A stretch of 64,000 bases of DNA from Klebsiella phage RCIP0020. The number at the start of each line of letters is the position of its first letter. Position 1 is the stretch's first letter. Both the position numbers and the translations under genes were made by a program. The DNA lies in the sequence record OR532814.1. One strand, written 5' to 3'. The notes under the pieces were generated by a model. It saw only the letters and a list, made by a program, of their open reading frames with translations. It did no database searches and was not told the DNA's origin. Below are positions 49,889 to 50,192 of the stretch, piece by piece.

Positions 49889-49966
49889 ACATACCTCAAT
49901 TTTTCAAAGAACGGGGTTATTGTAGTAACTTACGAAATGAAGTCAATACAAAAAACCATAAAAATT

Positions 49967-50110
49967 TTGATCAATAATACTTGATCTGATCAAATTTATG
50001 ATCTATAATTTATTAATTAATAATTATTTTACTACAATGATCATTGTAGGTCAAGTACTAAAATCAATAAATTTTATATAATTTAGATCTGATCTATAGA
50101 TCATTAGATC
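49967..50110. promoter_or_regulatory. GATC-dense palindromic control region: 9 GATC sites in ~145 bp, TTGATCAA, 18-bp perfect palindrome CTACAATGATCATTGTAG (50033..50050), 12-bp palindrome GATCTATAGATC (50091..50102) flanked by TAGATCT
   Basis: counted directly in the sequence; AT-rich divergent intergenic region between rnh and gene 55. Confidence 0.6.
49981..50009 (+). promoter_or_regulatory. consensus sigma70 promoter: -35 TTGATC, 17-nt spacer, -10 TATAAT, reading toward gene 55
   Basis: TTGATCTGATCAAATTTATGATCTATAAT. Confidence 0.6.
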
Positions 50111-50140
50111 TACTTTAACCTTAAATAATATAGAATGAAA

Positions 50141-50168
50141 TTTGATTTTGTCTACAGTTATTATATAA
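50141..50168 (+). promoter_or_regulatory. sigma70-like promoter: -35 TTTGAT, 16-nt spacer, -10 TATAAT, ~25 nt upstream of gene 55
   Basis: TTTGATTTTGTCTACAGTTATTATATAAT. Confidence 0.5.
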
Positions 50169-50192
50169 TATTCTTAACTTCAAAGAGGAAAT

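Follow-up and report, generated by a model that had tools for sequence, protein, structure and literature searches.

Why should a 304-bp gap between two divergently transcribed genes of a lytic T4-like phage hold nine GATC sites? The gap lies between rnh and gene 55 in the 64,000-nucleotide stretch of DNA analysed here (the window), which belongs to Slopekvirus (the Klebsiella phage KP15/KP27/Matisse group, Straboviridae) and is 99.7-100% identical to many records. The original prediction, made on the letters of the window, had taken this gap as a candidate replication origin or Dam-gated switch. In this work, we analyzed the composition and anatomy of the gap, compared it with the rest of the phage genome and with sister genera, and weighed the functions that could account for it.

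The GATC cluster and the anatomy of the rnh/gene 55 gap

The GATC cluster at rnh/55 is real and non-random, as had been claimed. The nine sites fall within 49969..50110 (starting at 49969, 49983, 49988, 50000, 50039, 50086, 50091, 50099 and 50107), whereas the window as a whole holds 424 GATC, or one per 151 bp, from which 0.95 would be expected per 144 bp; at this density, the Poisson probability of at least nine sites in 144 bp is 8e-7. In no other 144-bp stretch of the window does the count exceed four. Shuffled versions of the 144-bp core (n = 20,000) contained 0.23 GATC on average and three at most, and none of the other tetranucleotides made up of one G, one A, one T and one C is enriched in the core. 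The predicted AT content of about 80% was also borne out, with 78% in the intergenic region and 81% in the core, where 18 of the 28 G/C bases (64%) sit inside GATC. Selection for GATC throughout the genome was considered and rejected: with a trinucleotide Markov model, the observed/expected ratio is 1.00, and the excess seen against the mononucleotide expectation (1.79) is accounted for by the frequencies of the GAT and ATC trinucleotides. Since the genome as a whole has no tetranucleotide bias for GATC, the enrichment at rnh/55 is local and reflects no mutational drive towards this word.

The gap, referred to below as region A (Table 1), separates a leftward block of genes of about 21 kb from a rightward block of about 17 kb, the two running away from each other; in KP27, all genes from rIIA through rnh share a strand, and the opposite strand carries those from gene 55 onward. 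It contains four sigma70-type matches, two outward and two face to face, which were called by consensus match only, each agreeing at 10 of 12 positions, and all of which are annotated in KP27. Among them is the promoter that the original prediction had singled out (P2), whose motif GATCTATAAT turned out to be the signature of a family of modules. One GATC lies in the -35 hexamer of P2, one in its spacer and one abutting its -10, and P3 has one in the middle of its spacer. Judging from the positions of the hexamers, transcription from P2 and P3 would start at about 50016 and 50019, that is, at nearly coincident positions inside the pure A/T stretch.

Table 1. Features of region A and its flanking genes (positions in the window; a dot marks features given no strand)
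Feature	Position	Strand	Remark
rnh (RNase H / flap endonuclease), first gene of the leftward block	48953..49888	-	open reading frame; same gene annotated in KP27
Region A, divergent rnh/gene 55 intergenic region; 304 bp, 78% AT, 9 GATC	49889..50192	.	
P1, outward promoter match toward rnh, TTGACT-16-TACAAT	49919..49946	-	position kept in sister genera
Left GATC cluster, 4 sites: TTGATCAA, TTGATCTGATCAA, ATGATCTATAAT	49967..50003	.	
P2, inward promoter match, TTGATC-17-TATAAT, with 3 GATC	49981..50009	+	
Pure A/T stretch, 16 bp, TTATTAATTAATAATT, between the facing -10 hexamers of P2 and P3	50010..50025	.	
P3, inward promoter match facing P2, TTGACC-17-TAAAAT	50026..50054	-	
Perfect palindrome, 18 bp, CTACAATGATCATTGTAG, GATC at centre	50032..50049	.	
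Imperfect 128-bp dyad, about 74% self-complementary, centre near 50040	49983..50110	.	
Right GATC cluster, 4 sites: TAGATCT, GATCTATAGATC, ATT, AGATCT	50084..50111	.	
Box TTAAATAATATAGA, upstream of the gene 55 promoter	50121..50134	+	kept across genera
P4, outward promoter match toward gene 55, TTGATT-16-TATAAT, no GATC	50142..50169	+	position kept in sister genera
Gene 55 (late sigma factor), first gene of the rightward block	50193..50720	+	

The sites are organised as nested palindromes, much as had been described, except that the 18-bp palindrome CTACAATGATCATTGTAG lies at 50032-50049 and not at 50033-50050, and that the symmetry of TTGATCTGATCAA holds only around an unpaired central T. 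The 18-bp palindrome, present once in the window, forms the centre of the 128-bp dyad, with four GATC on either side, and covers the whole 17-nt spacer of P3 together with the first base of its -10. TTGATCAA is found at 49967-49974 and GATCTATAGATC at 50091-50102, and TAGATCT at 50084 and 50105. None of the four GATC of the right-hand cluster falls within a promoter match. Folded as single-stranded DNA, the core showed a modest gain over shuffles (z = -3.4). A structured RNA was discarded, as an Rfam scan of 49400-50700 gave no credible match (the best was a snoRNA model, E = 0.39). The box TTAAATAATATAGA is kept from Slopekvirus to RB43, JC221 and Phynn; by eye, it resembles neither the T4 late-promoter consensus (TATAAATA) nor that of the MotA box. 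In one record, KP13MC5-1 (OP617746.1), the sequence switches to unrelated GC-rich, mob-like DNA in the right arm of the palindrome, at about 50047 of the window; this junction is probably an assembly chimera formed at the palindrome and was treated as an artefact, the alternative being a real recombination event.

Paralogous modules at three loci and the element of the sister genera

A BLAST search of the intergenic region against the 64 kb recovered only its inverted self-match, and a dispersed repeat inside the window was accordingly rejected. The paralogues fall outside the window and were revealed by a whole-genome comparison on the complete Slopekvirus genome PQ492290 (174 kb). Region A showed 75-77% similarity to region B, the divergent gap between gene 3 and an unknown gene, which contains two tandem modules, and it also matched region C, the 304-bp gap directly upstream of uvsY, between gene 24 and uvsY. 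The local alignment scores were 52 for A and B (16.7±2.2 in dinucleotide-preserving shuffles) and 45 for A and C (20.4±2.5 in shuffles), with z of 10-16. At least seven GATC per 144 bp occur at two places only in this genome, A and B, and the three regions hold 9, 10 and 5 GATC, respectively, against 0.4-0.8 expected from their own composition. Furthermore, five of the six genomic copies of GATCTATAAT lie within A, B or C, and TAGATCTGATC of the right-hand cluster is common to A and B. The modules share the same order of elements: first TTGAnn-17-TATAAT, its -10 adjoined by a GATC, then some 15 bp of A/T and TAAAAT-17-TTGAyC in the facing orientation and, beyond TTGAyC, AATAAAT followed by TTTAGATCTGATC. 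In each of them, outward sigma70-type matches bracket a roughly symmetric AT-rich core with face-to-face promoter-like hexamers. Each of the three regions exceeds its shuffles by 2-4 SD in promoter-like sites, and a GATC lies inside 6 of the 10 promoter matches within A, B and C compared with 5 of 66 elsewhere in Slopekvirus.

The three regions also stand apart physically. They are the only long intergenic regions with 77-82% AT and the three least stable 100-bp stretches in the 174 kb, with nearest-neighbour free energies of -101 (A), -96 (B) and -93 kcal/mol (C), the genome mean being -132.7±6.1 and the next-lowest value -111. A and B sit at the two main gene-orientation divergence points of the genome, and cumulative GC skew has a local minimum at A and about its global minimum at B, both of which are explained by gene orientation. 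Adjoining module B, a 262-aa protein is encoded (PHROG 7322, without a Pfam match; PQ492290 165728-166516), and RB43 has a gene at the same position; by analogy with the origin-associated genes repEA and repEB of T4, which sit beside oriE, it may be an origin-associated factor.

Several contigs start or end inside A, B or C (IMG/VR 3300045988_041714 and _015308, ERZ1026872 NODE-38 and ERZ1035001 NODE-86), and so do the records of phiKp_15 (LC768477, LC768478). Such breaks occur in independent Slopekvirus and RB43-type assemblies, leaving pieces of about 140 kb and 35 kb, so that the module repeats are a source of recurrent assembly breaks and chimeras in these phage genomes.

Inside the genus, conservation of individual GATC sites proved uninformative, as the genomes are more than 98.4% identical at the intergenic region; in KMI7, one GATC is lost and another gained. 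Scans of IMG/VR and of metagenomes for diverged relatives returned only near-identical Slopekvirus or RB43-type sequences, without intermediates. It had been expected that GATC density would be conserved in related phages, and the comparison contradicts this: the rnh/55 gap of RB43, Lw1, GAP161, Miller, JC221 and Phynn has a length of 302-323 bp but only 1-3 GATC. The cluster is therefore genus-specific, and its absence from the sister genera implies that it is not essential to any function that the locus shares across genera.

What the sister genera have instead is a different element at the same positions. Pseudotevenvirus (RB43, Lw1, RB16 and others) has a palindromic element of its own, with paralogous copies at rnh/55 and upstream of uvsY and of gene 3. 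This element measures about 140-170 bp and consists of outer arms (GAGCGAAGCGA / TCGCTTCGCTC), nested inverted repeats and a conserved AT-rich core (ATTTTATATATAGAGAAAA...TTTTTAACC), with inner arms that covary. The GAGCGAAGCGA arms contain the stable GCGAAGC mini-hairpin motif, and CGAAG pentamers are repeated in the element. The sequence of the arms varies by lineage while their complementarity is kept, and the uvsY copy of RB43 folds into a long hairpin (z = -7.9). Viral contigs were also scanned with the core motif of RB43; its low complexity makes it unspecific, and the scan served only for locating the three RB43 copies. Pseudotevenvirus-type elements are always bracketed by outward promoters (10-12 of 12 consensus positions, mostly 11), the leftward one being kept at the uvsY locus though it runs antisense into gene 24. 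A GATC lies in the spacer of 13 of the 19 promoters flanking these elements; in P(rnh), it is found two bases from the -10 and is kept across genera while the remaining spacer has diverged, and the GATC of P(uvsY) is likewise kept. The searchable literature yielded neither a published account of the Slopekvirus or RB43-type triad nor experimental origin, transcript-start or methylome data for these phages.

These comparisons bear on two of the possible explanations. First, the cluster could be a functionless by-product, GATC having spread by local duplication of a short motif in a fast-evolving AT-rich spacer. Its restriction to one genus and the local repetition of GATCTGATC and TAGATCT are in keeping with such an origin, but the same enrichment is seen independently in three regions with a similarity of only about 75%, the concentration of the G/C bases of the core in GATC and the genome-wide ratio of 1.00 both argue otherwise, and isolates with at least 98.7% identity at the intergenic region (CPRSB excluded) keep the number of sites. 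We consider this explanation very improbable. Second, the modules could serve protein binding or recombination: symmetric arrays of G/C-containing motifs, (A/T)GATC(A/T) in Slopekvirus and CGAAG/CTTCG in the RB43-type phages, would bind a phage or host protein that organises, pairs or cuts DNA at the three loci (for example as a recombination hot spot, or in gene conversion or modular exchange), and methylation would be incidental. One arm variant is common to the copies within a genome and differs between genomes, which indicates concerted evolution, and the three loci have been replaced together in Slopekvirus, as might be expected of such modules. T4 origins, to go by the title of a reference (B11) in a review of T4 (PMC3016281), coincide with recombination hot spots. 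The modules are places where assemblies break, or are mis-joined in the case of the region A palindrome, yet any repeat is expected to break assemblies. Besides, no candidate binding protein was found, the 18-bp palindrome is single-copy and GATC positions turn over, as in KMI7, and we regard this explanation as rather improbable.

GATC methylation and the possible role of the modules

The phage carries a Dam-family gene (TIGR00571, 149.6 bits) outside the window. The open reading frame to which the phage adenine methyltransferase had been assigned, at 35242-36018 (-), is not this Dam homologue. Its 258-aa product has a methyltransferase fold (PHROG 3820 'DNA methyltransferase', E = 4e-129) with weak Pfam matches to N6_Mtase and MTS, is annotated as hypothetical in KP27, and would add a third candidate to the DNA methyltransferases Dam and Dcm. 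KP27 DNA has been reported to resist many restriction enzymes (PMC5219037).

The record of CPRSB (OM971649.1) bears on the state of the GATC sites. Its differences from the reference are 3.2-fold commoner at GATC, where most are G->A or C->T, and GATC is the top non-homopolymer 4-mer for such differences, with 22% of 314 sites affected, including five of the nine in region A. The genome is heavily fragmented, its DNA polymerase being split into seven CDS, and the differences concentrate at homopolymers and GATC. Nanopore errors at methylated motifs give such a signature (PMC12710330), which suggests that CPRSB is an unpolished long-read assembly of Dam-modified DNA. We thus rejected the loss of five GATC in this isolate as real, sequencing error at a modified motif being the best explanation. 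GATC in Slopekvirus virions appears to be methylated, and the activity of the modules would then differ between parental and daughter DNA. The recurrence of GATC in promoter spacers across genera also fits a role for Dam.

Taken together, these results point towards A, B and C acting as transcription-activated origins and early control modules that have been made methylation-sensitive, a reading to which we assign a probability of roughly 45%. On injected DNA, host RNA polymerase would fire from the module promoters, and the AT-rich core would be melted by this transcription, as a result of the negative supercoils that polymerases leave in their wake and/or of RNA-DNA hybrids. A T4-type replisome would start at the opened core, as at T4 oriF (uvsY promoter plus unwinding element) and oriG, and the same promoters would drive the flanking early and middle genes. 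By packing core and promoters with GATC, Slopekvirus would have made module activity differ between fully methylated parental and hemimethylated daughter DNA, whether methylation affects the promoters directly, alters duplex stability or is read by host SeqA. The phage would thereby have an inherent means of silencing its origins and early promoters once the first round of replication is over. The paralogy of the modules, their position in the least stable DNA of the genome and the synteny of their loci with T4 oriF, oriG and oriE point the same way. On the other hand, AT-rich regions with multiple promoters are expected at divergence points from early transcription alone. Of the original idea of an origin or Dam switch, the promoters and the orientation switch stand, and the paralogues at uvsY and gene 3 speak for it, whereas the lack of DnaA boxes and the restriction of the cluster to one genus speak against it.

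The main rival is a family of Dam-sensitive promoters with a purely transcriptional function. A, B and C would then be a few strong early promoter cassettes that have an extended consensus in common. They would work well on the injected DNA, which is fully methylated, and poorly on the hemimethylated DNA of the progeny, and would play no role in the start of replication. This is a serious contender, although on balance we doubt it. It accommodates well the four promoter matches of region A and their annotation in KP27, the fixed positions of GATC relative to the promoters (adjoining the -10, within or beside the -35, and mid-spacer) and the GATC of P(rnh) and P(uvsY), which outlasted the divergence of the surrounding spacer. 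In addition, the flanking genes are early or middle in T4, whose early promoters likewise have a long AT-rich consensus in common. Yet it leaves unexplained (i) the large non-promoter palindrome that lies between the outward promoters at three loci in the sister genera, (ii) the outward promoter that runs only antisense into gene 24, (iii) the face-to-face pairs with coincident start sites, and (iv) the four right-hand GATC outside the promoter matches.

Returning to transcription-activated origins, it is tempting to speculate further that Slopekvirus turned an ancestral palindromic origin element into methylation-licensed origins, a scenario that we consider unlikely. Each face-to-face promoter pair would melt a single bubble of pure A/T common to its two promoters, from which both forks would be primed. 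The phage Dam would write the GATC array and SeqA or polymerase would read it, so that only the fully methylated parental genome fires, which would amount to a hard-wired switch from origin-dependent to recombination-dependent replication, plus the shut-off of early transcription. In the RB43-type phages, a different, cruciform-forming element at these three loci would fulfil the corresponding task.

To our knowledge, replication origins have been mapped only in T4 itself. In a review of T4, the choice and the switching-off of origins are listed as open questions (PMC3016281). The origin reading predicts three short, clonable and mutable sequences in phages of Klebsiella, Enterobacter and E. 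coli that are used in therapy (Slopekvirus, Pseudotevenvirus and relatives). If it is true, they would offer a second, independent system for the firing of T4-type origins, the first lytic T4-like phage with GATC methylation state as a timing signal, and a case of origin elements swapped wholesale between sister genera with their positions fixed.

Comparison with known systems

As in region A, GATC sites of E. coli oriC lie within its AT-rich unwinding region, and GATCTATAATTTA resembles GATCTnTTnTTTT, the 13-mer of oriC. The density of nine sites in 144 bp is comparable to that of oriC, which has 11 GATC (PMC13337833). However, oriC has DnaA boxes, whereas none (TTATCCACA, at most one mismatch) was found in A, B or C, and an origin of the oriC type was rejected on this ground; moreover, the phage is lytic and has its own replisome. 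The modules contain no iterons, and no initiator with GATC-containing iterons is known for them.

Dam-sensitive promoters are known from IS10 pIN, dnaA P2 and cre of phage P1. Dam-regulated promoters carry GATC within the -35/-10 region, and so do the predicted promoters P2, with sites in or next to its hexamers, and P3, with one in mid-spacer. Among methylation-dependent systems, oriR and pac of phage P1 and Vibrio cholerae ori2 were also compared. Clustered TGATCA and AGATCT motifs flank the central site of P1 pac, as they do in region A, but T4-type phages package by headful, without a pac site.

Within T4-like phages, PeSL cassettes have been described in the RB49/phi1 type as repeated intergenic early promoters with a stem-loop (PMC2839356). 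The modules share with them a repeated intergenic early-type promoter and palindrome in a T4-like genome, with concerted copies. PeSLs, however, are many and dispersed between genes, whereas the modules occur at three loci only, fixed across two genera. A better analogue of the PeSLs is a dispersed repeat, TTGACTTCGGT..GGGCTTTT, at 16266-16287 (-) and 29252-29273 (-) of the window. Its form is TTGACTTCGGTnnnGGGCTTTTGyTATATT, with at least six copies, found also at 43920, 119349, 129914 and 146925 of PQ492290; it overlaps 'putative middle promoter' and terminator annotations of KP27 and looks like a cassette of the PeSL kind.

The modules were also compared with the origins of T4 itself. According to the T4 record, oriF is found at the 5' end of uvsY, the transcript of which serves as the primer. 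The other two origins lie inside genes: oriG is in gene 34, 2.2 kb upstream of rnh, and oriE in gene 5, at a distance of 3.4 kb from gene 3; they fire toward rnh and gene 3, respectively. The original prediction had put ori(34) at the rnh junction and oriG at gene 32, but oriG and ori(34) are the same origin (PMC3016281), inside gene 34. Region C, as the uvsY promoter region, matches the position of oriF exactly. In contrast, A is 2.2 kb off oriG and B 3.4 kb off oriE, both T4 origins being inside coding regions, kilobases from the starts of rnh and gene 3, whereas A and B are intergenic. Like A, oriG lies on the rnh side of a strand switch. T4 oriE, oriF and oriG are found at regions of transcription divergence and skew shift, and oriF and oriG each combine a promoter with an AT-rich unwinding element that is independent of sequence (PMC3016281). 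A, B and C likewise have AT-rich DNA of this kind next to promoter matches, and the swapping of the core between genera fits the finding in T4 that the unwinding element is not sequence-specific (PMC3016281). The promoters themselves are of another type, T4 origins using MotA-dependent middle promoters whereas the matches in A, B and C have -35 and -10 hexamers; by eye, no MotA box stands out in region A, and module B1 has TGCTTGA at a non-MotA spacing. Furthermore, oriF and oriG have little sequence in common, whereas A, B and C are paralogous. Finally, the T4 origins, with 0-1 GATC within ±200 bp, have neither a GATC cluster nor face-to-face promoter pairs, whereas the Slopekvirus modules have both.
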